A stretch of 64,000 nucleotides of DNA, from assembly GCF_024223415.1 (NCBI RefSeq), contig NZ_CP100500.1, one strand, 5' to 3'. This document shows, piece by piece, positions 23,057 to 58,192 of this stretch; positions within the stretch are counted from its first letter, which is position 1; each line of letters starts with the position of its first letter. A model generated the notes under the pieces. It searched no databases. It was not told the DNA's origin and was given only the letters and a program-made list of their open reading frames with translations. The DNA comes from Escherichia coli. Lineage in GTDB: Bacteria; Pseudomonadota; Gammaproteobacteria; Enterobacterales; Enterobacteriaceae. Made by a program: the position numbers and the translations under genes.

Positions 23057-24801
23057 TGGCCAAACTGCATTTTGTGAAGTTGCGCGTAAACGCCGCGGTG
23101 CTCAAGCAAATCGTTATGCGTACCGCGTTCCACAATGACACCATCCTCAACGACCACGATTTCGTCTGCCTTTTCAATGGTAGACAAGCGGTGGGCAATC
23201 ACTAGAGAGGTACGGTTTTTCTGCAACTCATCCAGTGCCGCCTGAATCGCACGTTCGGATTCGGTATCCAGAGCCGAGGTAGCTTCATCCAGAATCAGAA
23301 TCGGGCTATCACGCAGCAAGGCTCGAGCGATAGCAATACGCTGACGCTGACCGCCAGAGAGCAGCACGCCGTTTTCACCAATCACTGTATCGAGACCGTT
23401 ATCCATCTTATTGATGAAGTCCATGGCGTAGGCCATACGCGCCGCTTCTTCAATTTGCTCACGGCTGTACTGTTCAGTCCGTGCGTAAGCAATGTTGTTA
23501 GCAACCGTATCGTTAAACAGATGGACATTCTGCGACACCAGAGCAACCTGGTTACGTAACGACGCCAGGGTATACTCGCGCAGATCGTGACCATCCATCA
23601 GGATTTCGCCTTCATCAATATCGTAAAAACGCGTGATCAGGCTGGCGATGGTTGATTTACCTGAACCAGAGCGTCCAACCAGAGCAACCGTCTTCCCTGC
23701 CGGAATTTTCAGGTTGATGTTACGCAATGCGGGTACGTCACGTCCCGGATAAGTAAAGGTGACGTTGCGGAATTCCACGTCGCCAGTCGCACGCTCGATC
23801 ACGCGCTTACCTTCGTCTTTCTCCTGCTCACTGTCCAGAATGGTAAACAGCGTCTGACAAGCCGCCATACCGCGCTGGAACTGGGCGTTAACGTTAGTCA
23901 GCGATTTCAGCGGACGCATCAGTGCAATCATTGAAGAGAAAACAACGGTAATCGTACCGGCAGTCAGGCTATCCATGACACTTGGGAAGCTCGCCGCATA
24001 CAGAACAAACGCCAGCGCCAAAGAGGCGATCAGCTGAATGATCGGATCAGAGATGGAAGAGGCTGAAACCATTTTCATCCCCTGAAGACGCATTCGGTTG
24101 CTGACTTTATCGAAGCGTTTCGTTTCCACTTCCTGACCACCGAAAATCAATACTTCTTTATGGCCTTTCAGCATTTGTTCAGCGCTGGTGGTCACCTGCC
24201 CCATGGTGTTCTGCATGTTTTTACTGATGTTGCGAAAACGCTTCGATACTACGCGAATCGCAATCGAAACAATCGGTGCCAGCACAATCAAAATGATCGA
24301 CAATTGCCAACTGTAATAGAACATCATGATGAACAGGCCGATGATCGACGCACCTTCACGCACAACAGTAATCAGTGCGCCGGAAGAGGAAGAAGCAACC
24401 TGTTCGGAATCGTAGGTGATACGTGACAACAGCGTACCCGTTGACTGTTTGTCAAAGAATGAAACCGGCATTCCCATCATGTGACCAAACAGGCGGCGAC
24501 GCATGGTCATTACCACCTTTCCTGATACCCAGGAGATACAGTAGCTGGAGACATAGCTGGTGATACCACGCAAAATCATCAGCCCGATCACCACCAGCGG
24601 CATCCACACCAGCACGGAGCGATCTGTTTTACCAAAGCCATCATCAAGAAGTGGCTTAAGGAGCGATAACATGAAGGTATCGCTGGCTGCGTTGAGGATT
24701 AACGCTACGCCCGCCACGATCAGACCCGCTTTAAAAGGCGCAATGGTTGGCCACAGTCGGCGGAATGTCTGCCACGTAGAGAGATCTTTGTCGTTATGCA
24801 T
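23053..24801 (-). CDS. msbA: Lipid A export ABC transporter MsbA
   Basis: 582 aa; Walker [13 protein letters not shown] signature LSGGQRQR; overlaps lpxK start. Confidence 0.95.
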
Positions 24802-37866: not shown

Positions 37867-40149
<2,283 letters not shown>

Positions 40150-46548: not shown

Positions 46549-48993
46549 TTACACCTTTTCAACCTGAACAAGGTTTGTATGTGACGGATTCCCCTTAGCG
46601 AGAGGAGACGGACGTTGAGTGGTCAGTACGTTAATACAACCACCCTTATCGACACGTTTTGTATCCGGGTCATACCAGGCACCTTCACCCAGTGCGACCA
46701 CACCCGGCATCATTCGTGGCGTCACTTTCGCCTCAATATGAACCTCACCACGATCGTTAAAGATCCTGACTTTATCGCCGTTGTGGATACCGCGTTTTTG
46801 GGCATCAAGCGGGTTGATCCACATTTCCTGACGGCAAGCCGCTTTCAGCACATCAACGTTGCCGTAAGTTGAGTGAACGCGAGATTTATAGTGGAAACCC
46901 GTAAGCTGCAGCGGATACTGTTTGTTCAGCGGATCCTGATAACTTTCAAAGCCCGGCGTATAGATCGGCAGTGGATCGATCACATCGCCTTCTGGCAATT
47001 CCCAGGTAGCGGCAATGTCAGCCAGCGCCTGCGAATAAATCTCAATTTTACCCGATGGCGTGGTCAGTGGATTTGCCTGCGGATCTTCACGGAAGGCTTT
47101 ATAAGCAACGTGATGCCCTTGTGGGTCGCGCTTTTTAAAGATCCCCTGCTTGCGGAACTCTTCAAACGTTGGCAGTTCAGGAATCGCTTCCCGCGACTGG
47201 GCATACAGATGCCGCATCCACTCTTCCTGGGTACGGCCTTCAGTAAACTGTTGCTCAACGCCAAGACGTTTTGCCAGTTCGCTGGTCATTTCATAGATGG
47301 TCTTACATTCAAAGCGCGGTTTAATCACCTGATCGTTGAAAATCACGTAAGACATATTCCCGCAGGATGCATCCAGTGCAAAGTCCATCTGTTCGGAAGC
47401 GGTGCAGTCAGGCAGCAGGATGTCAGCATATTTCGCCGATGAGGTCATGTGGCAGTCGATAACCACAATCAGCTCGCACTTCTTATCATCCTGGAGGATT
47501 TCATGGGTACGGTTGATTTCAGAATGCTGGTTAATCAGGCAGTTACCGGCATAGTTCCAGATCATTTTGATCGGCACATCCAGCTTATCTTTCCCGCGCA
47601 CACCATCACGCAGCGCCGTCATTTCCGGGCCACGTTCAATGGCATCGGTCCACATAAACATCGAAATGCTGGTCTGGATCGGGTTTTCCAAGGTCGGCAT
47701 ACGGACAAACGGTAAGCTGTATGAACCTTCACGCGCGCCGCTGTTCCCTCCATTAATACCAACGTTACCGGTCAGAATCGCCAGCATCGAGATAGCACGG
47801 GTTGCGATTTCACCGTTAGCGTGACGCTGCGGGCCCCATCCCTGGCTGATAAACGCCGGTTTGGTACTGCCGATTTCACGAGCCAGTTTGATGATTTTGT
47901 CTGCCGGAACACCGGTGATTTGCGAGGCCCATTCCGGTGATTTAGCCACGCCATCTGGCCCTTCACCCAGAATATAAGCTTTATAGTGGCCATTTTTCGG
48001 CGCACTGGCTGGCAGGGTTTTCTCATCGTAGCCAACGCAATATTTATCGAGGAATGCCTGATCCACCAGGTTTTCAGTGATCATGACGTACGCCAGACCG
48101 TTAACCAGTGCGGCATCTGTTCCCGGACGAATAGGGATCCACTCATCTTCGCGCCCGGCACCGGTGTCGGTATAGCGCGGATCGATGATGATCATGCGGG
48201 CATTAGATTTCTGGCGTGCCTGTTCAAGATAGTAAGTCACCCCACCGCCACTCATTCGCGTTTCGCCAGGGTTATTACCAAACAGCACTACCAGCTTACT
48301 GTTTTCGATATCCGACGGGCTGTTGCCATCTGCCCAGCCGCCGTAGGTATAGTTCAGACCTTCCGCAATTTGCGCGGAAGAGTAGTCACCGTAATGGTTC
48401 AGATAACCGCCGCAGCAGTTCATCAGGCGCGCGACCAGGGTATTTCCCGGCGGCCAGGAGCGGGTCATGGTGCCACCCAGCGTACCGGTGCCATAGTTCA
48501 GATAGATGGATTCGTTGCCGTACTCTTTGATCAGGCGCTGCATATTGGTCGCGATGATGTCGTAGGCTTCTTCCCAGCTAATGCGCTCGAATTTGCCTTC
48601 ACCGCGCGCCCCGACTCGTTTCATCGGATATTTCAGGCGGTCCGGATTATAGACACGGCGACGCATGGAACGCCCACGCAGGCAGGCGCGAACCTGGTGC
48701 AGGCCGTCGTAATTGTCATCGCCGGTATTGTCCGTTTCGACATATTTGATTTCACCGTCCACGACGTGCATACGTAGCGGGCAGCGACTACCACAGTTAA
48801 CTGTACAGGCGCTCCAGATAACCTTTTCGTCTGATTTTGTTGGAATAGCGCTATCGACAGCGTGCGCAATCCGACTAAAAGGTAATGTTAATGCGCTGCT
48901 GGCCATTGCCAGGCCGCCGATCGCTGTCGTTTTTACCAAACCACGGCGACTCACCTCAGCAGCCAATACCGCATCAGGGATTTTCGTTTTCAT
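46549..48993 (-). CDS. dmsA: DMSO reductase catalytic subunit (molybdopterin), Tat signal
   Basis: 814 aa; twin-arginine leader SRRGLVKTTAIGGLAMASSA. Confidence 0.95.
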   Translation of the reverse strand: MKTKIPDAVLAAEVSRRGLVKTTAIGGLAMASSALTLPFSRIAHAVDSAIPTKSDEKVIWSACTVNCGSRCPLRMHVVDGEIKYVETDNTGDDNYDGLHQVRACLRGRSMRRRVYNPDRLKYPMKRVGARGEGKFERISWEEAYDIIATNMQRLIKEYGNESIYLNYGTGTLGGTMTRSWPPGNTLVARLMNCCGGYLNHYGDYSSAQIAEGLNYTYGGWADGNSPSDIENSKLVVLFGNNPGETRMSGGGVTYYLEQARQKSNARMIIIDPRYTDTGAGREDEWIPIRPGTDAALVNGLAYVMITENLVDQAFLDKYCVGYDEKTLPASAPKNGHYKAYILGEGPDGVAKSPEWASQITGVPADKIIKLAREIGSTKPAFISQGWGPQRHANGEIATRAISMLAILTGNVGINGGNSGAREGSYSLPFVRMPTLENPIQTSISMFMWTDAIERGPEMTALRDGVRGKDKLDVPIKMIWNYAGNCLINQHSEINRTHEILQDDKKCELIVVIDCHMTSSAKYADILLPDCTASEQMDFALDASCGNMSYVIFNDQVIKPRFECKTIYEMTSELAKRLGVEQQFTEGRTQEEWMRHLYAQSREAIPELPTFEEFRKQGIFKKRDPQGHHVAYKAFREDPQANPLTTPSGKIEIYSQALADIAATWELPEGDVIDPLPIYTPGFESYQDPLNKQYPLQLTGFHYKSRVHSTYGNVDVLKAACRQEMWINPLDAQKRGIHNGDKVRIFNDRGEVHIEAKVTPRMMPGVVALGEGAWYDPDTKRVDKGGCINVLTTQRPSPLAKGNPSHTNLVQVEKV

Positions 48994-49163
48994 AATGGCT
49001 CACTCAAGCTTGCTCACGATTGATTCCAGTAACAAACCGTATTGTGTAATTATTTCTATAGCAGATCGCTATATAGGCTTGTATACATCGAATAATTTGA
49101 AAATCAAAGAGATAGGTAGATTTTCACTCGAAAGTAGTATTACGTGTAAGTGAGGAGTAATTA

Positions 49164-49177
49164 TTGTTCGGTATCAA
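49164..49177 (-). promoter_or_regulatory. FNR-type half-site pair in dmsA promoter
   Basis: TTGTT-CGGT-ATCAA (consensus TTGAT-N4-ATCAA) ~170 bp upstream of dmsA ATG. Confidence 0.5.
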
Positions 49178-49289
49178 AGGGAGACAAAAAAAGCGCCCGC
49201 AGGAGATTTAACGGTACTTACTCCTCTTGCTGATTTCCTTATTTTTCAATAAGTAAACAAAAACAAGGGGAGCAAATTATCACAAATAA

Positions 49290-50285
49290 TTACTGGTCGA
49301 TGGACAGTTTATGGACACTTTCAGCCAGCGGATTAAAGCTGATCGCATCCTGTAAAAAGTCCGGTGAAAAATGCGCATACGTCATCGTTTGCTGAATCGT
49401 GGCGTGACCCAGGATCCTCTGCAACGTGACGATGTTCCCGCCGTTCATCATGAAATGCGTGGCGAACGTGTGCCGCATGACATGCGTGGCCTGCCCTTTG
49501 GGTAAGTCGGGCTTCACCTCCTGAAGGATCTCCCTGAAACTGAGATAATCAACCTGATATAACAGGCCGGTCCGGCGGGTTTTAATTAACGGCACAACGG
49601 AATCAGCTACAGGAACCGAGCGCGATTTCCCGTTCTTTGTGTTAAAGAACGTCACCCTGTTACCCACGATGTGTTCCCCGCGAAGCGTTGACGCCTCTTT
49701 CCATCTGGCCCCGGTCGAAAGGCACAGAATGGCAATGCGTCGTGCATCACCCTCAAGCCGTTTCAGAAGGCGATCAATCTCGTCATCTGAAAGAAAGGCC
49801 ATTTCTGTATTCTGAACCTTGAGTTTACGTATTCCGCGCACAGGGTTTTCGTTATGATAAACCTCCGCGTCAATTAACAACGAAAACATCGCAGATAAGG
49901 CGCACAGGTCGCGATTGATACTGGACGGCATCAGTCCCGCCTGCAACTTATCCGAGCGATACTCAATCATGAATTTTCGTGTCATCTGGCTGGCGCGCGG
50001 GTCCCCCATTTCACGTATCACCTTCTCCAGTCTGGTTCTGTAGGTATCACCATATGCCTGATTACGACCATCAAGCATCCACCACACCTCAATCAGTTCT
50101 GATAACCGCCGTTGATCGGCGGGCCTTGCCTGCCACGGGTTATTGTGGAAATTCTGAAGAACGTATCTTTCGAATTCCTGCGCCTTTGATTTCAGGGTGA
50201 AAATCTTACGAATCCGCCTTCCTCCCGCCCCCTGAGGCCTTACATCAACCTGATAACGTCCGTCTTTGAGTTGCTTAATCGACAT
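49290..50285 (-). CDS. int: P2-family tyrosine integrase
   Basis: ORF track 49290..50294; likely start MSIKQLKDGRY behind GGAGG; catalytic region HVMRHTFATHFMMNGGNI...ILGHATIQQTMTYAHF resembles P2 Int. Confidence 0.9.
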   Translation of the reverse strand: MSIKQLKDGRYQVDVRPQGAGGRRIRKIFTLKSKAQEFERYVLQNFHNNPWQARPADQRRLSELIEVWWMLDGRNQAYGDTYRTRLEKVIREMGDPRASQMTRKFMIEYRSDKLQAGLMPSSINRDLCALSAMFSLLIDAEVYHNENPVRGIRKLKVQNTEMAFLSDDEIDRLLKRLEGDARRIAILCLSTGARWKEASTLRGEHIVGNRVTFFNTKNGKSRSVPVADSVVPLIKTRRTGLLYQVDYLSFREILQEVKPDLPKGQATHVMRHTFATHFMMNGGNIVTLQRILGHATIQQTMTYAHFSPDFLQDAISFNPLAESVHKLSIDQ

Positions 50286-50354
50286 GATCAGCACCTCCGA
50301 CGGATAAACCTGTTAACCCCTGCTTACTGAACGCCGCCCGTTCAATATACAGCG

Positions 50355-50696
50355 TCAGCCAGCATTGCGGCCTGATTGGGGTGATTTTTGGGTATTGCGG
50401 GTTGAAACCTGATCGTCCTCCGACTGCGTGGAGCCATCAAGAGAGAGAGCCGGGGCGATCTGACCGGCAACAGGTAGCGTCTTATCTTTGATTAACCAGA
50501 ACATATATTTTTCAAACCGATCCACTTGAAGGACGGCCTCAACAATCTTTGCTCTGGCGATCTTTTGCCCTGACTCATAATTCCTGACAGTTGCCAGAGA
50601 TAACCCTGTAATATCAGCAAATTGCTTTTGAGTTAGCCCTTCCGTCTTGCGTATCAAACGCAACTTTTTCGCATAGTCTATTGACAAGATACTCAT
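50355..50696 (-). CDS. C: P2 C-type immunity repressor (HTH)
   Basis: 113 aa; HTH LTQKQFADITGLSLATVRNYESG; C-terminal GQIAPAL...SPQSG resembles my recollection of P2 C. Confidence 0.8.
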   Translation of the reverse strand: MSILSIDYAKKLRLIRKTEGLTQKQFADITGLSLATVRNYESGQKIARAKIVEAVLQVDRFEKYMFWLIKDKTLPVAGQIAPALSLDGSTQSEDDQVSTRNTQKSPQSGRNAG

Positions 50697-50799
50697 TTGG
50701 GGATTAATCTCCTACAAAAGATAACCGTACGGTTATCTTTACAAGTCATCAAAAATCATCAAAAGGCGCAACAAGCGCACCAATGCAAGAGGATAACAA
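50697..50799. promoter_or_regulatory. Divergent Pc/Pe switch region with operator-like repeats
   Basis: Perfect 18-bp palindrome GATAACCGTACGGTTATC (~50720-50737) and tandem 10-bp direct repeats TCATCAAAAA/TCATCAAAAG (~50746-50765) between C and cox-like starts. Confidence 0.6.
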
Positions 50800-51321
50800 A
50801 TGCGGGAGATTATTGCCGACAAAGAGTTATCTGGCGCTCAACCGGTTCAGGATGATGGCGCGGACAATGAATTCATTGAAGCTGCCAACGACAACGAACA
50901 CCTGGAAACCAAAACCAGACCGTCCTACAAAAAGGGCGCAACCCTACGACTGGACGGCCCAGTCGCAGGACTTGTGTCACTGGAAAAAGGGGCTGCCTAT
51001 CTGGGGGTAACAAAATCTGCGCTACGCGCCGCCATTCAGCGCGGGCAGATGCCGGGTCACAAAACGCGCTCAAATCCCGAAGATGAAAAGTCAGACGGTA
51101 CATGGTGGTTTAACGCCAAAGCCTGGGACGAACTAGCCGACGAACTACTGGAGTGCGAACCGCCAGAGTGGCACAACTGGAAAAGCTACTGGACGTACGA
51201 CCGCAAGAAAAGAAAGTTTTCACCGGCAAACAAGGAGGACTGCCAGACCGTTAAAGGTAAGCAGGTTTACTCCCCCAGAGTTTCAAAACTGGAGCAACTC
51301 AAAAACAACCAGCCCGGCTAA
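50800..51321 (+). CDS. cox: Cox-like excisionase/regulator with N-terminal extension
   Basis: 173 aa, RBS AGAGGA; central HTH LEKGAAYLGVTKSALRAAIQRGQMP and GTWWFNAKAWDELADELLE resemble P2 Cox, which is ~91 aa. Confidence 0.65.
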   Translation: MREIIADKELSGAQPVQDDGADNEFIEAANDNEHLETKTRPSYKKGATLRLDGPVAGLVSLEKGAAYLGVTKSALRAAIQRGQMPGHKTRSNPEDEKSDGTWWFNAKAWDELADELLECEPPEWHNWKSYWTYDRKKRKFSPANKEDCQTVKGKQVYSPRVSKLEQLKNNQPG

Positions 51322-51329
51322 ACACGAAA

Positions 51330-51536
51330 ATGACCAGCAATATCATCAGCGCCATTCTGACACTTGTTTTTATTGAGATAGGCGTAATAGCGATCTATTT
51401 GTTTCGTAAGTTAACGGGACATGAAGAACGCTTTATTGAACTCAGCATTGAATATATCGCCGCTTATACCAAAGGACTTTTCCCGGCAGCTATTGGGGCG
51501 ATGTTTATAGCGTTTGTTATCTGGTTTATCGGGTGA
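51330..51536 (+). CDS. Small hypothetical membrane protein (2 predicted TM)
   Basis: 68 aa, hydrophobic segments ISAILTLVFIEIGVIAIYLF and AAIGAMFIAFVIWFIG. Confidence 0.45.
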   Translation: MTSNIISAILTLVFIEIGVIAIYLFRKLTGHEERFIELSIEYIAAYTKGLFPAAIGAMFIAFVIWFIG

Positions 51537-51787
51537 GAAACCTGATAAACCACAACTACTGCAATGAGGGTAATTATGTGTGGCATGGACAAATTGGACC
51601 TTATGTTAATTGTAATACTATCAATTAACTTCGGTTACCTCTTAAGCGGCGTAATTCTCATGTGCGGAGGCAAACGAAAATGAACCAGCAGTCCGCAAAA
51701 CGTGAACACAATGCGATGCGATTTAATCGCAAATATTTTGAGTTCGCCGCTATGCCGGAATAATTAAATCTGTACAGAGTCTTTAAC

Positions 51788-52126
51788 ATGAAACAGCAAC
51801 GTAATTCACGCTTTCGTAATGGTGCTGAACGTCACGCTAACCGTTTCGCTACCAGTGCATCACGTAGTAACTCCCGCTACAGCCTGAGCGAGACACACGC
51901 AACACCGGGCGGTCATGCTGTAAAACAGACTGGTCAACACACCTGGCTGATTGAGCAGGCCGGACTCGTGATCCACAGATGCCACCGCAATCCGTTTACC
52001 GGAAACCGCATTTTTGCACTGAGCAGCGGCGACAATCAGTTCGGACAGGATTTCACACTGCACGAAGCCTTGCGAACTGCCGACCGCTTAATCGAGGGGC
52101 GCAGCTTTCAGCATACCGACTACTAA
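51788..52126 (+). CDS. Hypothetical early-operon protein
   Basis: 112 aa ORF co-oriented with early operon. Confidence 0.5.
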   Translation: MKQQRNSRFRNGAERHANRFATSASRSNSRYSLSETHATPGGHAVKQTGQHTWLIEQAGLVIHRCHRNPFTGNRIFALSSGDNQFGQDFTLHEALRTADRLIEGRSFQHTDY

Positions 52127-52164
52127 GGCAAAAGGAGTCTTAATAAGACAGAAGAGGCAGCAAG

Positions 52165-52407
52165 ATGAAAAGAGCCTATAAAGAACTCATTAACCACGCG
52201 CTTCAGAATTACCATTACGGACTTACAAGCCGTGGCACTAACGGTGACGCTGTTTCACTTGCAGCACTGACTACAGCAATCAAGGGCCTGACCTGTTGCG
52301 CCTTTGGTTCCGGAGATAATGAAGCTCTGACGGAATTACAGGCCATTAATAAAGACCTGTCTGAAGGAAACGTAATAACCCCCTTTGTAATTCAGGAGGA
52401 AGCATGA
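52165..52407 (+). CDS. Hypothetical early-operon protein
   Basis: 80 aa, RBS-like GGCAGCAAG upstream. Confidence 0.5.
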   Translation: MKRAYKELINHALQNYHYGLTSRGTNGDAVSLAALTTAIKGLTCCAFGSGDNEALTELQAINKDLSEGNVITPFVIQEEA

Positions 52408-52529
52408 GCGTATTTATGTCATGGTTAATTCTTATCCTTGCCATTATTTGCGCTGTGGGGATTATGCGGGTAATTAACAGCATTAACACCATTGAATCGT
52501 TATTTACTGGCGATAAGCGCCGTAAATAA
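52404..52529 (+). CDS. Small hydrophobic peptide (41 aa, 1 TM), hypothetical
   Basis: ATGA overlap with preceding stop, strong RBS AGGAGG; MSVFMSWLILILAIICAVGIMRVINSINTIESLFTGDKRRK; below ORF-track size cutoff. Confidence 0.4.
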   Translation: MSVFMSWLILILAIICAVGIMRVINSINTIESLFTGDKRRK

Positions 52530-52609
52530 ACAGGCGTTTAACACCAGAAACAACCAGAAACATCCGCTCACGCGGAGGGGTTGACCCGCTCAAAAAGGAG
52601 AAATCAGGA

Positions 52610-52903
52610 ATGCTTAATAATAAAAAAAACCGAATCATTGATAACAGTGAACAGGTCAACAAAATAATCGAAGGCACAAACAAATTAATTAAGAAAAAAA
52701 ACAAACTAAGCCGTGAATTAATGGAACATCCGGAAGAAATATTATTAGCCATGATGCACCAGACAGAAGCGATAGCCATCGCCCTTGCCGTGCAGGCGCT
52801 TTCTGAGTTCCGGGAAGAAAACATCAGGCTGGCTCAGGAGCTGAAAAACCTCAGACGTCAGCTTCAGAGCACTGAGGCTGGCACGTCATCACGAATGCAC
52901 TGA
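52610..52903 (+). CDS. Hypothetical protein, Lys-rich N-terminus then helical C-terminus
   Basis: 97 aa, RBS AAAGGAG; 5' half markedly AT-rich compared with neighbours. Confidence 0.55.
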   Translation: MLNNKKNRIIDNSEQVNKIIEGTNKLIKKKNKLSRELMEHPEEILLAMMHQTEAIAIALAVQALSEFREENIRLAQELKNLRRQLQSTEAGTSSRMH

Positions 52904-52913
52904 GGGCCACACC

Positions 52914-53123
52914 ATGACTGCAATTCTGAGAAGACGCAATAAAACGCTTTTTACCGATACATCCGGGATGGAATACGAAGTGGAAAGCAGTGTCATAGCC
53001 ACCACCACCCGATGCCCGGCAGGTGACGAACTGATTTACGTCCACCTGACGGACGGGTCACAGATAACCGTCCTGACAGAGTCATGGCGCGAACTCGAGA
53101 TAATAAGCGAGGTAAGAACATGA
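52914..53123 (+). CDS. Hypothetical early-operon protein
   Basis: 69 aa. Confidence 0.45.
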   Translation: MTAILRRRNKTLFTDTSGMEYEVESSVIATTTRCPAGDELIYVHLTDGSQITVLTESWRELEIISEVRT

Positions 53124-53332
53124 GCAGCAAACACGATACCAACGCACGCAGACCAGGCAAAGAGGCGCGTCACCATATCGCCGTAATGCGCAACCTGCTT
53201 ATGAGTGAAATCGACGATTTTGTGGCAGGCCTGGGGCAACCGGGCGAACCAGCAACACCAGGCCAGATACACAGGGAATTACGCCGCCGCGTGGAAAACG
53301 TCGTGGATTACGTCATAAACCCGAACGACTGA
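53120..53332 (+). CDS. Hypothetical early-operon protein
   Basis: ORF track 53084..53332; preferred start MSSKHDTNARRPGK with ATGA overlap and GAGG RBS. Confidence 0.45.
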   Translation: MSSKHDTNARRPGKEARHHIAVMRNLLMSEIDDFVAGLGQPGEPATPGQIHRELRRRVENVVDYVINPND

Positions 53333-53371
53333 CGGGAACATGGCGAGCGTCAGATGACACACGCAGGGCAC

Positions 53372-53854
53372 TTATCGGGACAAACCGATCGTAATCGCAG
53401 CCATCATCTTTTCAGCGAAAGAGAGAGATTCACGATGACTGATATTCAGAGACATACAGGCTTTGTTGTACGCCACATTTTCCATGCATTCCAGGACAGG
53501 AGAGTCATGCATCTCAAGCTCTGGAAGGCGTGCCAGCAGAGCTTCCGTACTGAGGAGGGCGCTTTTGGTAATCAACTCATTGTAGCGATGGGCATGCTCA
53601 CTCGCCGCCTGCGCACGTTGCCCGAAACGACATATGAAATTACAGGCTCCGAGAACCACCACCACTGCCCCCAGCACCCAGCCGAAATGCCAGCCGGCTA
53701 CGATGAACGCACCCGCCGCAAGGATCAAAATGTTGATGATCGCATCAAGGCGACGATTGAACACCGCCGCGATGCGCTCCAGCCAGTAGCTGTACCAGAG
53801 ACGGAACATGACCTCATCCCGTTCTCTCGATTTTTTACGTTGGTTGTTTTGCAT
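53372..53854 (-). CDS. Membrane protein encoded antisense to the early operon (candidate moron)
   Basis: 160 aa, RBS GAGGG; two clear TM helices (AIINILILAAGAFIVAGW, GWVLGAVVVVLGACNFI); the overlapping + strand ORF 53354..53989 is low-complexity. Confidence 0.55.
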   Translation of the reverse strand: MQNNQRKKSRERDEVMFRLWYSYWLERIAAVFNRRLDAIINILILAAGAFIVAGWHFGWVLGAVVVVLGACNFICRFGQRAQAASEHAHRYNELITKSALLSTEALLARLPELEMHDSPVLECMENVAYNKACMSLNISHRESLSFAEKMMAAITIGLSR

Positions 53855-54088
53855 GGTGTTTTATCCCTCATCGTCATCGCTCTGCCCCTAATCAGCGCAG
53901 AGTGCAGGGTAACCTGGCTCGTGGAATTTTTGCAGCCAGACATCTTTACCCCCGGGCGTGTTGAACAAAGTGTCCGCCAGATCCACTGAACGGCGGATTC
54001 ATCAATGCTAACACGCCCTTCTTTTCCGGTTGAAGGCGAAAAAACCGGACCATTACCCCGACACAAAACAGAACAACGGAGAACAACT

Positions 54089-54643
54089 ATGCCCGCACTT
54101 AAACCTATGGGTGTATCAGGTGTACCACCGAAGCATGTCAGAGCCTGGACACAACAGGAAGATGCTCTACTGGTCGGTTTATACCCCTCCCACACCGTAC
54201 CAGAACTGACAAAACACTTTCAGAGAACCGGGCCAGCAATACGAAGCCGCATCCGTCTTTTGCTCTCTCAGGGGGTTATCCACACCAAACAACCCCCCCT
54301 GAATACAAAAGAACTCAACACGCTCATCAGGAATCGCCACACAAAAACCATCCGGGAACTCGCGAATGAACTGGGGCGCTCGACATCCACGGTGGGACTG
54401 AACCTGAGAAAAAGAGGGTACCGGTTCAGGAAATACGGGGAACTCCACCACAGAGCCAGATACAGCGATCACCTGGTGGAGTTGGTAACTGAACTGCGCG
54501 ATGAACAGGGGATGACATTCAGCGAAATCAGAAAGTACATCCGGGACACGACCGGGATATCCCTTAAAAGATGGGTCCTCGCCCGGCTTTACGCACGATA
54601 TACCGCCGCTGACACCGTGCTTTGCGAACTGCTACCGGACTGA
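54089..54643 (+). CDS. Putative DNA-binding protein with three HTH-like repeats
   Basis: ORF track 54005..54643; start moved to MPALKPMGVSG behind GGAGAA; repeated helix-turn-helix-like segments (..TVPELTKHFQRTGPAIRSRIRLL.., ..TIRELANELGRSTSTVGLNLRKRG.., ..TFSEIRKYIRDTTGISLKRW..). Confidence 0.55.
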   Translation: MPALKPMGVSGVPPKHVRAWTQQEDALLVGLYPSHTVPELTKHFQRTGPAIRSRIRLLLSQGVIHTKQPPLNTKELNTLIRNRHTKTIRELANELGRSTSTVGLNLRKRGYRFRKYGELHHRARYSDHLVELVTELRDEQGMTFSEIRKYIRDTTGISLKRWVLARLYARYTAADTVLCELLPD

Positions 54644-54966
54644 GTAACCACTATGCACACACAAAAAAACCGCTTGCCATGCCGCAATCAGTCAGGTTAC
54701 ATTTCCGCTGCACCTCATAAAACGGGTGCCGGGATTGCAACCCCCGCTGACAAACGAAGCGCACAACCGCGCCAGCGGTTTTTTTGTGCGTACCGTATCG
54801 CCACGTCTTTTTCGCACCAGAATTATGGTGGGGCGTACGGGGCCGACTTCGGTCGGGCCGGTTTCTTCGTTTGCCGGTGGTTGCAACCCTGTACGTCTCG
54901 CCACCCAGAATTGCAACCTCTGGATGGTGAGTATCCAAAAACTCACAAACGAAGAGGCCAAACACC

Positions 54967-55194
54967 ATGGCAAACCGCAAACAACAGCGCGCATACGCTG
55001 CGCGTCGTCACATCCAGACTGAAATCAACCGCAGACTTTCCCGCGCATTCCGCGTCGCGCATATCATGCACATCAATATGCTGCATGAGCGCAGCCACGC
55101 ACTGTCAAACATGTATTCCGCCGCTGTATTCAGCTACCTGGCGGATGACCTGCGCAAGCTGCAGGACCTCATTAACCAGCACTACCACCACTAA
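54967..55194 (+). CDS. Hypothetical early-operon protein
   Basis: 75 aa, basic, RBS GAAGAGG. Confidence 0.5.
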   Translation: MANRKQQRAYAARRHIQTEINRRLSRAFRVAHIMHINMLHERSHALSNMYSAAVFSYLADDLRKLQDLINQHYHH

Positions 55195-55262
55195 TCAACA
55201 TCCCGGAGCCATCCCGCCCCCGTACGCGGGAGGCTTCCGCACGTCCGTTTCCGGAGGTTCTC

Positions 55263-55676
55263 ATGAAGAGCGTTAAGGGACTTTCAGATATTCAGGATTT
55301 TTTTAACTGGATGTGGGCGGTGGATCCACGCCTCGCTTCCCGTCTCAATGACCTGCATGACTATTACCGCCGCGCCTGTAAACAGGCCGCCAGCAGCGCC
55401 ACCACATACGGGAATTTTTCCTTCACCGTTGATGACCGTTACCGCGTGGATGTCAGAGACCAGAACCACAGCATGGTGCTGGGCCTGTTCCACATCAACG
55501 GGTGCGACAGCAGCGTTATCAGCTGGTCATCGTCAGAAATGGTGCTCGTTCTGGAAATGACCACCCACAGCGTGGTCGTGAAAGGGATTAAAACAGCAGA
55601 AGACTTTATCGCTGAATACCAGCGCCTTCTTGTGCTGTACCGGGCTGCATTTGAGAAGGCAACAGCAGGGGAGTAA
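55263..55676 (+). CDS. Hypothetical protein immediately upstream of A
   Basis: 137 aa, RBS GGAGG. Confidence 0.55.
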   Translation: MKSVKGLSDIQDFFNWMWAVDPRLASRLNDLHDYYRRACKQAASSATTYGNFSFTVDDRYRVDVRDQNHSMVLGLFHINGCDSSVISWSSSEMVLVLEMTTHSVVVKGIKTAEDFIAEYQRLLVLYRAAFEKATAGE

Positions 55677-55681
55677 GCGGA

Positions 55682-58192
55682 ATGAGCCATCACCACACGC
55701 ACCTGGCGTACCCGTGGAACGCCCCGCTGCCGGTTATTGATCCTGAGACATTCGGCAGAGCATTACCGCAGAAGCCAACCGCATTACAACGGGCAATCCG
55801 TGACTACCTCACCGAAGACATTCGCACTGAGGCCCGGCTGGATGAAGAAACCGTGGCCTTCCTGACAACCACGGACAAAGGTAAGCAAATTAATTCACAC
55901 CTTCACCGGGACGAAGAGCGGCAGATAAGGCTGGATAAGCTGGCACGACACAGACGCGAAAATCCGCCAACGGCGGTATCGGAGGCGATAGCCGAACTTC
56001 GCACCCTGCCCTCGTTTCTTGCCAGTGTGTTGATCCGTGATCTGGCACGACTGAACCGGAAACAGCAAAGTGCCCGCAGTGAAGGTGTAAAAAACAACAG
56101 CGCATACGTGGCCGATAATTTCGTTCGCCGTGGACTGCGTGCGCGCCTGAAACGTATTGAAAGGGTTAACGACCGCTTTGCAACGCCGGCATTCAAAACC
56201 ACCGTCGTGCGCCATCGCCTTGAAGAACTGCTCACACTGCCGCAACTCACCCGTGACGAAATCCAGCGCATCGCCACACTGACAGCCCAGGCATTCGCCG
56301 CAGAATTTGAACGCATATGTGATGAAGTTCTTGAACGGACAGGCAAGGATAATGACAGCCCGGTTATCTGGCTGCTGGCCTACCAGAAGGTGGCACGCAC
56401 AGCCTTAATTCTGGGCGTGGTCCCGCCATACTGGCCGGAACTCGAAATCAGGCACAACCGACGCACACCGCCGGACCCTGAACGGGTTCCGGGTGCGGTA
56501 CTGCGCATCACCTGCGCGACCTGGTGGAACAACCAGTTACGCCACGTCGCCGATCTCTGGCGGGAGGAGTTACTGCGCGCCGCCGGCAGAGTGTCACGTA
56601 AACAATCCCCCTATATCAGCCATGAGTCACTACTGGAGTTCCGCGAGAAGCGCCAGCGCACCCGTGACTTTCTCAAAAGCTGGGATATTGAAAACGAAGA
56701 CGGCGAGCGCCTGAGTCTGGAGGACGTGTACTGGGCTGGCCTGGGTAATCCACGCAACCGCCGCAATGAAATGATGGTCTGCGTCAGAGGGATGGAGATG
56801 GTGGCCGAATTACGGGCTGACGTCGCATTCTTCATCACAGTAACCACCCCTTCCCGCTTTCACAGCGTGAACGAGAACGGCAGCCTGAACCCGAAATACA
56901 ACGGTGCCACAGTACGAGATGCCAGTGATTATCTGGTTTACGACTTCTTCGCAGCCGTAAGAAAAAAAATAAAAAAAGAGGGGCTGGGCTGGTACGGCGT
57001 GCGAACCGCTGAGCCACACCATGACGGCACGCCACACTGGCATATGCTGGTATTCACTTCCCCGGAGAACGCAGAGCGCATCATCGAAATTATGCGCGAA
57101 GCAGCAATTAAATCAGATCGCCACGAACTGGGGGACGATATTTCACCGCGCTTTAAATGCGAGAAGATAGACCCGGAAAAAGGCACACCGGCAAGCTATA
57201 TCGCAACCTATATCGGTAAGAACCTGGACGCCAGCGCTTTCCACAACAATGATCCGAAAACCGGAAAACCTTACGTTGATGAGGAATCCGGGAAAACCAT
57301 GGCGGAAACCGTGGAGAACGCCATTGCCTGGGCAAGCCTTCACCGCATCCGTCAGTTCCAGTTTTTCGGCATTCCGCCCCGCCAGGTATGGCGTGAACTC
57401 CGCCGCCTTGCAAGCCAGATGGAGCGCAACCCGGCATCACCGAAGCACCTCGATCATGACGATATTGACGCCATTATGGCTGCCGCAGATGTGGGATGTT
57501 TTGCCACCTACATCATGAAACAGGGTGGTGTGCTCATTCCGCGCAACCAGTATCTGGTCCGCACCGCATACGAAACCGCAGACGAAGCCAACGACTACGG
57601 TGAATTCCCTCAACGTATCTACGGAATCTGCGCCCCGTCGCTCGGAGAGCGGTACACCATATGCACCCATCCGGACGAGTGGAAACTGGTTAAAAAAGAA
57701 ACAACACCAGACAACCGCACGGGCGAGGGTTTTGACCTTCAGGGCGACCCCGTCGCCCCTTGGACTCGTGGCAATAACTGTCCCCGGGATGAAAAAACAG
57801 ACAATCACGGACCAGAAAACAGGCAGGACCCCGGACGACTGACGCTTCCCGAAGAGAACCTGGAAAGCTGGCTGAATACGTTAAGCAGGGGCGATCGGAG
57901 AAAACTGCGTAATCAGATTAAAAATCAGCCGTCGGGCGCAAAAACCGGACAAAACGACACCACACCGGCATCTGACACCCCTGTAAGGGTGGGGATTGTC
58001 GTGCCTGCGGATACCGCGACGGACACGCAAATCGCCCGCGAACTTGATGCGCTGGGTGTGCAGTTGCCTGACGCGGCCATCATCTCCGTGCGTAACGGTG
58101 CCCGTGTGCGTCTGGATAACGGGGGAACAGCGTACTGGGATGAGTCAGCCCGTCACATCATCACAGAGCAGCCAGTGGAGGCGGGAGCATGA
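55682..58192 (+). CDS. A: P2 gpA-like rolling-circle replication initiator
   Basis: 836 aa; HUH-type motif TPHWHMLVF and paired tyrosines YIATYIGKN; larger than P2 A (~761 aa as I recall). Confidence 0.9.
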   Translation: MSHHHTHLAYPWNAPLPVIDPETFGRALPQKPTALQRAIRDYLTEDIRTEARLDEETVAFLTTTDKGKQINSHLHRDEERQIRLDKLARHRRENPPTAVSEAIAELRTLPSFLASVLIRDLARLNRKQQSARSEGVKNNSAYVADNFVRRGLRARLKRIERVNDRFATPAFKTTVVRHRLEELLTLPQLTRDEIQRIATLTAQAFAAEFERICDEVLERTGKDNDSPVIWLLAYQKVARTALILGVVPPYWPELEIRHNRRTPPDPERVPGAVLRITCATWWNNQLRHVADLWREELLRAAGRVSRKQSPYISHESLLEFREKRQRTRDFLKSWDIENEDGERLSLEDVYWAGLGNPRNRRNEMMVCVRGMEMVAELRADVAFFITVTTPSRFHSVNENGSLNPKYNGATVRDASDYLVYDFFAAVRKKIKKEGLGWYGVRTAEPHHDGTPHWHMLVFTSPENAERIIEIMREAAIKSDRHELGDDISPRFKCEKIDPEKGTPASYIATYIGKNLDASAFHNNDPKTGKPYVDEESGKTMAETVENAIAWASLHRIRQFQFFGIPPRQVWRELRRLASQMERNPASPKHLDHDDIDAIMAAADVGCFATYIMKQGGVLIPRNQYLVRTAYETADEANDYGEFPQRIYGICAPSLGERYTICTHPDEWKLVKKETTPDNRTGEGFDLQGDPVAPWTRGNNCPRDEKTDNHGPENRQDPGRLTLPEENLESWLNTLSRGDRRKLRNQIKNQPSGAKTGQNDTTPASDTPVRVGIVVPADTATDTQIARELDALGVQLPDAAIISVRNGARVRLDNGGTAYWDESARHIITEQPVEAGA

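Follow-up and report, generated by a model that had tools for sequence, protein, structure and literature searches.

An attL junction of a P2-family prophage at the terminator stem-loop between serS and dmsA in Escherichia coli

The window, i.e., the whole 64,000-nucleotide stretch of Escherichia coli contig NZ_CP100500.1 analysed here, passes from the dmsA region of the host chromosome into a prophage of the P2 family. The features on which the following account relies are listed below by coordinates and strand.

46549-48993, minus strand: dmsA, host flank; an 814-aa open reading frame with Pfam domains Molybdop_Fe4S4, Molybdopterin, and Molydop_binding, annotated as dmsA in matching RefSeq genomes
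49084-49218, plus strand: full-length match to Rfam STnc130 (125.8 bits, threshold 55), a putative enterobacterial sRNA that would run antisense across the dmsA promoter and 5′ UTR
49166-49179, minus strand: class II FNR site TTGATACCGAACAA of the dmsA P1 promoter, read from the sequence
49189-49203: att core AAAAGCGCCCGCAGG, 15 bp, identical in the three-way comparison of attL, attB, and attR
49204-49289: phage P′ arm from the core to the int stop codon, starting with AGATTT
49290-50285, minus strand: int, P2-type tyrosine recombinase of 331 aa, assigned by Pfam; the reading frame is open back to a GTG at 50294
49298-49320, plus strand: putative arm-type Int-binding repeats of the P′ arm, cgATGGACAgtt and ttATGGACActt, at 11-bp spacing in the last int codons
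50355-50696, minus strand: candidate C-type immunity repressor (HTH_3)
50800-51321, plus strand: cox, excision directionality and switch protein (Pfam Phage_Cox, 1.5e-08; Cox family annotation)
51322-64000: rest of the prophage in the window, with the early genes, running on for approximately 23 kb past the window to attR beside serS
55682-58192, plus strand: gpA replication endonuclease
60807-61862, minus strand: portal
61862-63613, minus strand: large terminase

On the host side, homology to K-12 extends upstream of dmsA for 457 nt at 99.1% identity, with its last position at 49209. The FNR site is contained in this segment and deviates at one position from TTGAT-N4-ATCAA. Host sequence thus reaches 49203 or 49209 and is followed by phage DNA up to the int stop codon, which lies 81-87 bp from the end of host homology and 110 bp from the end of the FNR site. 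The initial annotation had described K-12-like synteny through dmsA and its FNR-containing promoter, a switch within about 110 bp to the 3′ end of a P2-family integrase gene, and a junction devoid of tRNA genes. All three points are upheld; for the last, ARAGORN found neither tRNA nor tmRNA in 47000-52000. The FNR site of dmsABC is reported to be centred at −41.5 (PMC3688515). From this spacing, the P1 transcription start would lie near 49131, with TAATAC at 49142-49137 as its −10 element, and the att core, 10 bp away from the FNR site, would occupy approximately −58 to −72.

On the phage side, Int comprises an N-terminal PF24624 Int_N domain (2e-30) and a C-terminal catalytic PF00589 Phage_integrase domain (1.3e-17) with the motifs HVMRH, LGH, and TYAHF. 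It is 54.6% identical over its full length to a P2-type Int, 90.6% identical to the Int of prophage PhiECO5 in strain UTI89, and identical at 330 of 331 residues to a copy in strain SCU-115. The int and C genes are leftward and cox is rightward, a divergent arrangement as in P2, and the int stop codon is 86 bp from the core. Two further features of the early region were observed. A 160-aa open reading frame at 53372-53854 (minus strand) opposite to the early genes has no Pfam match, carries a hypothetical annotation in every relative, and is a possible moron. Rfam matches to isrK (54710-54908, plus strand, 61.9 bits) and C4 antisense RNA (54967-55194, plus strand, 79.3 bits) stand in tandem directly upstream of a 75-aa "derepression protein" (PF25738), and the UTI89 prophage has both as well; the arrangement looks like an antirepressor control module of the P1 c4/ant or Gifsy IsrK kind in a P2-type early region.

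The far end of the prophage was located in NZ_CM144243.1 of E. coli strain DG341-1, which is 100% identical to the window over 49100-64000. The initial annotation had placed the prophage between serS and dmsA and had proposed an alignment with the empty K-12 serS-dmsA region and with the far end in search of a duplicated core. This alignment identified the duplicated core: serS was found directly beyond the far end, at a distance of 37,396 bp, and the 15-bp repeat recurs exactly beside it, 29 bp from the serS stop codon. The sequence AAAAGCGCCCGCAGG occurs once in the window and as a single copy in the empty K-12 site, and exact second copies are present beside serS at position 38466 of locus L003 (NZ_CM144243.1) and position 24404 of locus L001 (strain LH10-b-1). 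To the right of the core, phage AGATTT at attL stands against host CGCTTT with two mismatches; to the left, phage ...CATGC at attR stands against host ...GACAAA. Because an arm identical to that at 49204-49289 is joined to rraA DNA in SCU-115, AGATTT is phage DNA and the element ends at the core. The core lies within the interval 49181-49289 proposed earlier for the att site, whereas the P′ arm-type sites (TGGACA at 49301-49306 and 49312-49317) fall just outside it, in int.

Three further observations concern the remainder of the prophage. The tape-measure gene (L003 27526-30873, minus strand) is flagged by RefSeq as an incomplete pseudogene, yet an uninterrupted 1115-aa open reading frame covers the whole interval, and the pseudogene call probably stems from the annotation and not from a real defect. 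Between ogr and attR, outside the window (L003 34890-38080), lies approximately 3 kb of cargo in which a module of 0.65-1.2 kb is repeated in tandem three to four times in diverged form; one copy has an annotated Hok/Gef toxin gene and the others are unannotated. A relative at the rraA site carries three annotated hok genes at the same position, and Rfam gave no match either at attR or within the hok cargo. The prophage of LH10-b-1 at the same site (L001 5445-8200 against window 51537-54278 and beyond) has lost approximately 13 kb including gpA and the portal, terminase, capsid, and lysis genes. This defective, tail-only remnant still has int-C-cox, ogr, and the full set of genes for tail and baseplate.

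The empty site, attB, is the hairpin of the intrinsic terminator that follows serS and acts in both directions; this stem-loop, AAAAAAAGCGCC-CGCA-GGCGCTTTTT, folds with −16.3 kcal/mol and is followed by U7. Integration of the two phage types affects this hairpin differently. At attR, both types restore the serS hairpin; in the window type it folds with −15.6 kcal/mol and the U-tract is shortened from 7 to 4, and a phage terminator lying approximately 70 nt deeper in the prophage can serve as a back-up for serS. At attL, the common UTI89 variant retains the hairpin (−14.7 kcal/mol, with U7), as it does at its other end, whereas the window folds with only −4.5 kcal/mol (z −0.1). The hairpin is lost here because the right half of the dyad differs by two bases between attP and attB (AGATTT against CGCTTT). 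Its destruction leaves no terminator between int and dmsA P1 and leaves the putative STnc130 RNA without one; no other terminator-like site was found in 49204-49289.

The phage attachment site, reading ...TAAGTACCATGCAAAAGCGCCCGCAGGAGATTTAACGGTACTTA..., was reassembled from the two phage arms at both junctions as GCAAAAGCGCCCGCAGGAGATTTAACGG. It is a reconstruction, since no free-phage genome with this integrase is present in the phage collection: tblastn of Int against 50,697 phage records returned no free-phage attP, and the only close matches were ON470599, ON470623, and PV468777. These were rejected as sources of attP, being prophage predictions that still carry ycaO-dmsA host DNA. The "phage genomes" vB_EcoM-569R5 and vB_EcoM-705R2 are themselves such predictions; they include approximately 11.5 kb of host chromosome (ycaO, focA, pflB, pflA, ycaD, ycaC, and dmsCBA) and end partway through the prophage (L004, ON470599.1, 1-11580).

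The reconstructed attP has the organization of a P2-type site. TGGACA repeats are located at −62, −51, +98, and +109 bp from the core, all four in one orientation; they conform to tgTGGaCa, the arm-site consensus published for P2-type phages (Nilsson et al., 2011, PMC3448106), and both the UTI89 prophage and a P2-type phage record have them at these distances as well. The core is flanked by an 8-bp inverted repeat, TAAGTACC/GGTACTTA, the right half of which lies in the P′ arm at 49213-49220. A simple scan for the IHF consensus WATCAANNNNTTR with at most one mismatch gave no hit within 300 bp of the core. At the place expected for a P2-type IHF site, between the left repeats and the core, there is a perfect A/T palindrome of 11 bp, ATGAAAATAAA/TTTATTTTCAT. 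The octamer CCCGCAGG (49196-49203), centred on the terminator loop, is common to three attP variants and is the sole block they share apart from TTTAACG further on. From these variants and two secondary-site events, CCCGCAGG is probably the strand-exchange (overlap) region, and its variable flanks would be the core-type Int sites. Integration may accordingly be pictured as follows: the N-terminal domain of Int would bind the arm repeats, Int dimers would bind both arms of the terminator dyad as core-type sites through the core-binding domain, and strands would be exchanged within 49196-49203, with Cox directing excision, as in P2.

Evidence for the position of the exchange is provided by a second chromosomal site. 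In strain SCU-115, the same phage (99.3% nucleotide identity) lies between rraA and zapB. The empty secondary site is the rraA terminator AAAAGGCACCGCAAGGTGCCTTTTTT, with a hairpin similar to that of serS and no STnc130. The junctions read GCAAGG/AGATTT (host to phage) and CGCAGG/TGCCTTTT (phage to host), the relevant SCU-115 and empty-reference coordinates being L008 5950-6110, L009 5560-5830, and L010 1150-1330. Both switch exactly after AGG, the right edge of CCCGCAGG, and at this poorly matched site no more than AGG is common to the two sequences where they switch. In two further genomes (L011 and L012), rraA is occupied by a third Int variant (88-89% identical) with the same switch point and an attP reading ...AAAACCACCCGCAGGAGGTTTAACG...; altogether, an int of the window-phage family was found at rraA in three of 5426 complete E. 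coli genomes. The copy in SCU-115 shows that the window-type phage has been recently mobile, and the occurrence of a 99.3% identical phage at two loci with identical ends is an indirect sign of Int/Cox-dependent integration and excision.

Among the same 5426 complete genomes, a 751-bp probe spanning the empty serS-dmsA site is contiguous in 5076 (93.5%), and the dmsA-int junction is present in 344 (approximately 6%). Nearly all interruptions of the serS-dmsA region are therefore due to this integrase family. The window variant accounts for approximately 25 of the 344 occupied genomes, at an identity of at least 98.7%, and the others, approximately 88% identical to it, are of the UTI89 type. 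On this evidence, we assign 49189-49320 of the window, with a probability of about 0.93, to attL of a 37.4-kb P2-family prophage (Peduoviridae, P88/PhiSM-like) that recombined into the bidirectional terminator stem-loop between serS and dmsA.

The alternative that survives best, although we regard it as unlikely, is that the integrase targets the 3′ end of an STnc130 sRNA gene, in the manner of P2-like integrases directed to tRNA, tmRNA, and sRNA genes, the role of the serS terminator being secondary. The Rfam match is full length, and the terminator stem-loop of STnc130 (model positions 107-126) coincides with the att core, being the same hairpin as the serS terminator on the opposite strand. 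The empty K-12 site scores 140.1 bits and the UTI89 attL 139.3 bits; the drop from 140 to 126 bits in the window arises because the 3′ half of the stem is here phage-arm DNA. However, the same DNA hairpin is the target under both readings, which differ in name only. STnc130 has been described as a putative Salmonella sRNA next to dmsA, with nothing firmer (PMC3632133), K-12 RefSeq has no RNA gene annotated at the match, and the DNA covered by the model doubles as the conserved dmsA promoter; STnc130 is therefore taken as a lead rather than as a gene. A simple promoter scan yielded no convincing plus-strand promoter for it. Furthermore, the secondary site is the terminator of a protein gene, rraA, with a similar hairpin and without STnc130, which points to the hairpin sequence, and not an sRNA gene, as what Int recognises.

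Selection of the position for an effect on the host is improbable. Under such an explanation, the insertion would rewire expression of dmsABC, either by read-through of Pc-C-int transcription or by replacement of the DNA upstream of −72. The proximity of the core to the FNR site and the co-orientation of int with dmsA favour it, as does the loss, in the window-type phage, of the hairpin between them, with no other terminator-like site found in 49204-49289. By contrast, the insertion leaves intact all of the promoter from the FNR site downstream, which is 99% identical to K-12, and the majority UTI89 type keeps the full hairpin with U7 at attL; any effect on dmsABC is thus not general to the site. 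For the minority variant, constitutive Pc-C-int transcription would proceed without a terminator into the dmsABC promoter, which depends on FNR and lies 10 bp away. That lysogeny by this variant, and not by the UTI89 variant, alters the oxygen control of DMSO respiration is a very improbable consequence, and the routes to it (read-through, loss of the STnc130 terminator, or replaced DNA upstream of −72) are speculative.

A fixed, vertically inherited, immobile island with an incidental 15-bp repeat and no site-specific integration deserves almost no credence: although some copies have decayed, as in LH10-b-1 without its replication, capsid, and lysis genes, and RefSeq flags the tape-measure gene of the window's genome as a pseudogene, that reading frame is in fact intact, the site is uninterrupted, with a single core copy, in 93.5% of genomes, the repeat falls exactly where host homology resumes, and the phage of SCU-115 ends at the same nucleotides at another locus, which essentially refutes such an origin.

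The attL of a P2-family prophage at this terminator is, moreover, not without precedent. Prophage PhiECO5 has been listed at 911187-948481 of UTI89 (Nilsson, Johansson, and Haggard-Ljungquist, 2011, PMC3448106, Table 1), an interval that we find flanked by serS and dmsA; its published boundaries fall inside the 20-bp UTI89 cores AAAGCGCCCGCAGGCGCTTT at 911178-911197 and 948472-948491. The serS-dmsA site was therefore already known from this listing, with boundaries in the same hairpin. The remark in the initial annotation that this is not a known P2 integration site accordingly holds for P2 itself, whose Int is only approximately 55% identical, but not for the family, in which the site is catalogued as that of PhiECO5. 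PhiECO1 of E. coli HS (916812-948276) was considered for the same site and rejected, being of the 186 type and located between rcdA and ybjL. A full-text literature search linking dmsA, serS, and prophage gave no match, and a 2026 preprint delimits the att sites of thousands of P2-like elements genome-wide.

PhiECO5 is the closest counterpart of the window prophage. The two share the serS-dmsA locus, the terminator hairpin core, the int-C-cox module, the arm repeats, and the hok cargo beside attR, and they are of nearly equal size (37.3 kb for PhiECO5 and 37.4 kb for the window prophage), whereas Int is 90.6% identical and the junction region approximately 88% identical at the nucleotide level. 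The cores also differ: UTI89 has 20 bp with the hairpin kept at both ends, whereas the window phage shares 15 bp with attB and has lost the attL hairpin. P2 resembles the window phage in the N-terminal arm-binding domain of Int, the tgTGGaCa-type direct repeats on both arms, the divergence of C and cox, and the position of int beside attP with its 3′ end overlapping the P′ arm sites. Both use an intergenic, non-tRNA integration site and secondary sites with imperfect cores. P2 differs in its core and attB and in Int (approximately 55% identical), and the window phage has approximately 3.7 kb of cargo (hok-like repeats) between ogr and attP, no IHF consensus found, and late genes of the P88/PhiSM (Xuanwuvirus) rather than the P2 type. 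P2 proper, with its locI/locII specificity, was thus discounted on the basis of its Int and of the serS-dmsA site; the P2 site is given at MG1655 2165238 (PMC3448106, Table 1). The canonical 27-bp core of P2 was not found in the "Peduovirus P2" record NC_070906, and this record was therefore used for architecture and Int identity only.

The replication, portal, and terminase genes are approximately 80% identical at the nucleotide level to those of P88 and Citrobacter PhiSM (Xuanwuvirus), and the UTI89 prophage has been listed as a PhiSM relative (PMC6456863). Since these matches start only after int-C-cox (query 2600 onwards), P88 and PhiSM have a different integrase and immunity module and presumably a different attB. 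Phages of the 186/Fels-2 type, which integrate at tRNA genes or ssrA, likewise use a short dyad-symmetric RNA-structure target at the 3′ end of a transcription unit that is restored at one junction; here, by contrast, no tRNA or tmRNA is present, integration goes into an intrinsic terminator, and Int falls in the P2 branch, not in that of 186.

The feature is thus an ordinary, previously catalogued P2-family attL junction, and its site, phage family, and mechanism are textbook P2 biology that carries little weight as a discovery. Its value resides in the prophage boundary, now placed to the nucleotide for annotation, in the identification of attB as the serS terminator, common to the putative STnc130 and 10 bp from the dmsA FNR site, and in the documentation of a natural secondary site at rraA. 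The candidate exchange region CCCGCAGG, together with the pairing of 88-91% identical integrases with differing core half-sites, could interest those who engineer P2-type integrases.
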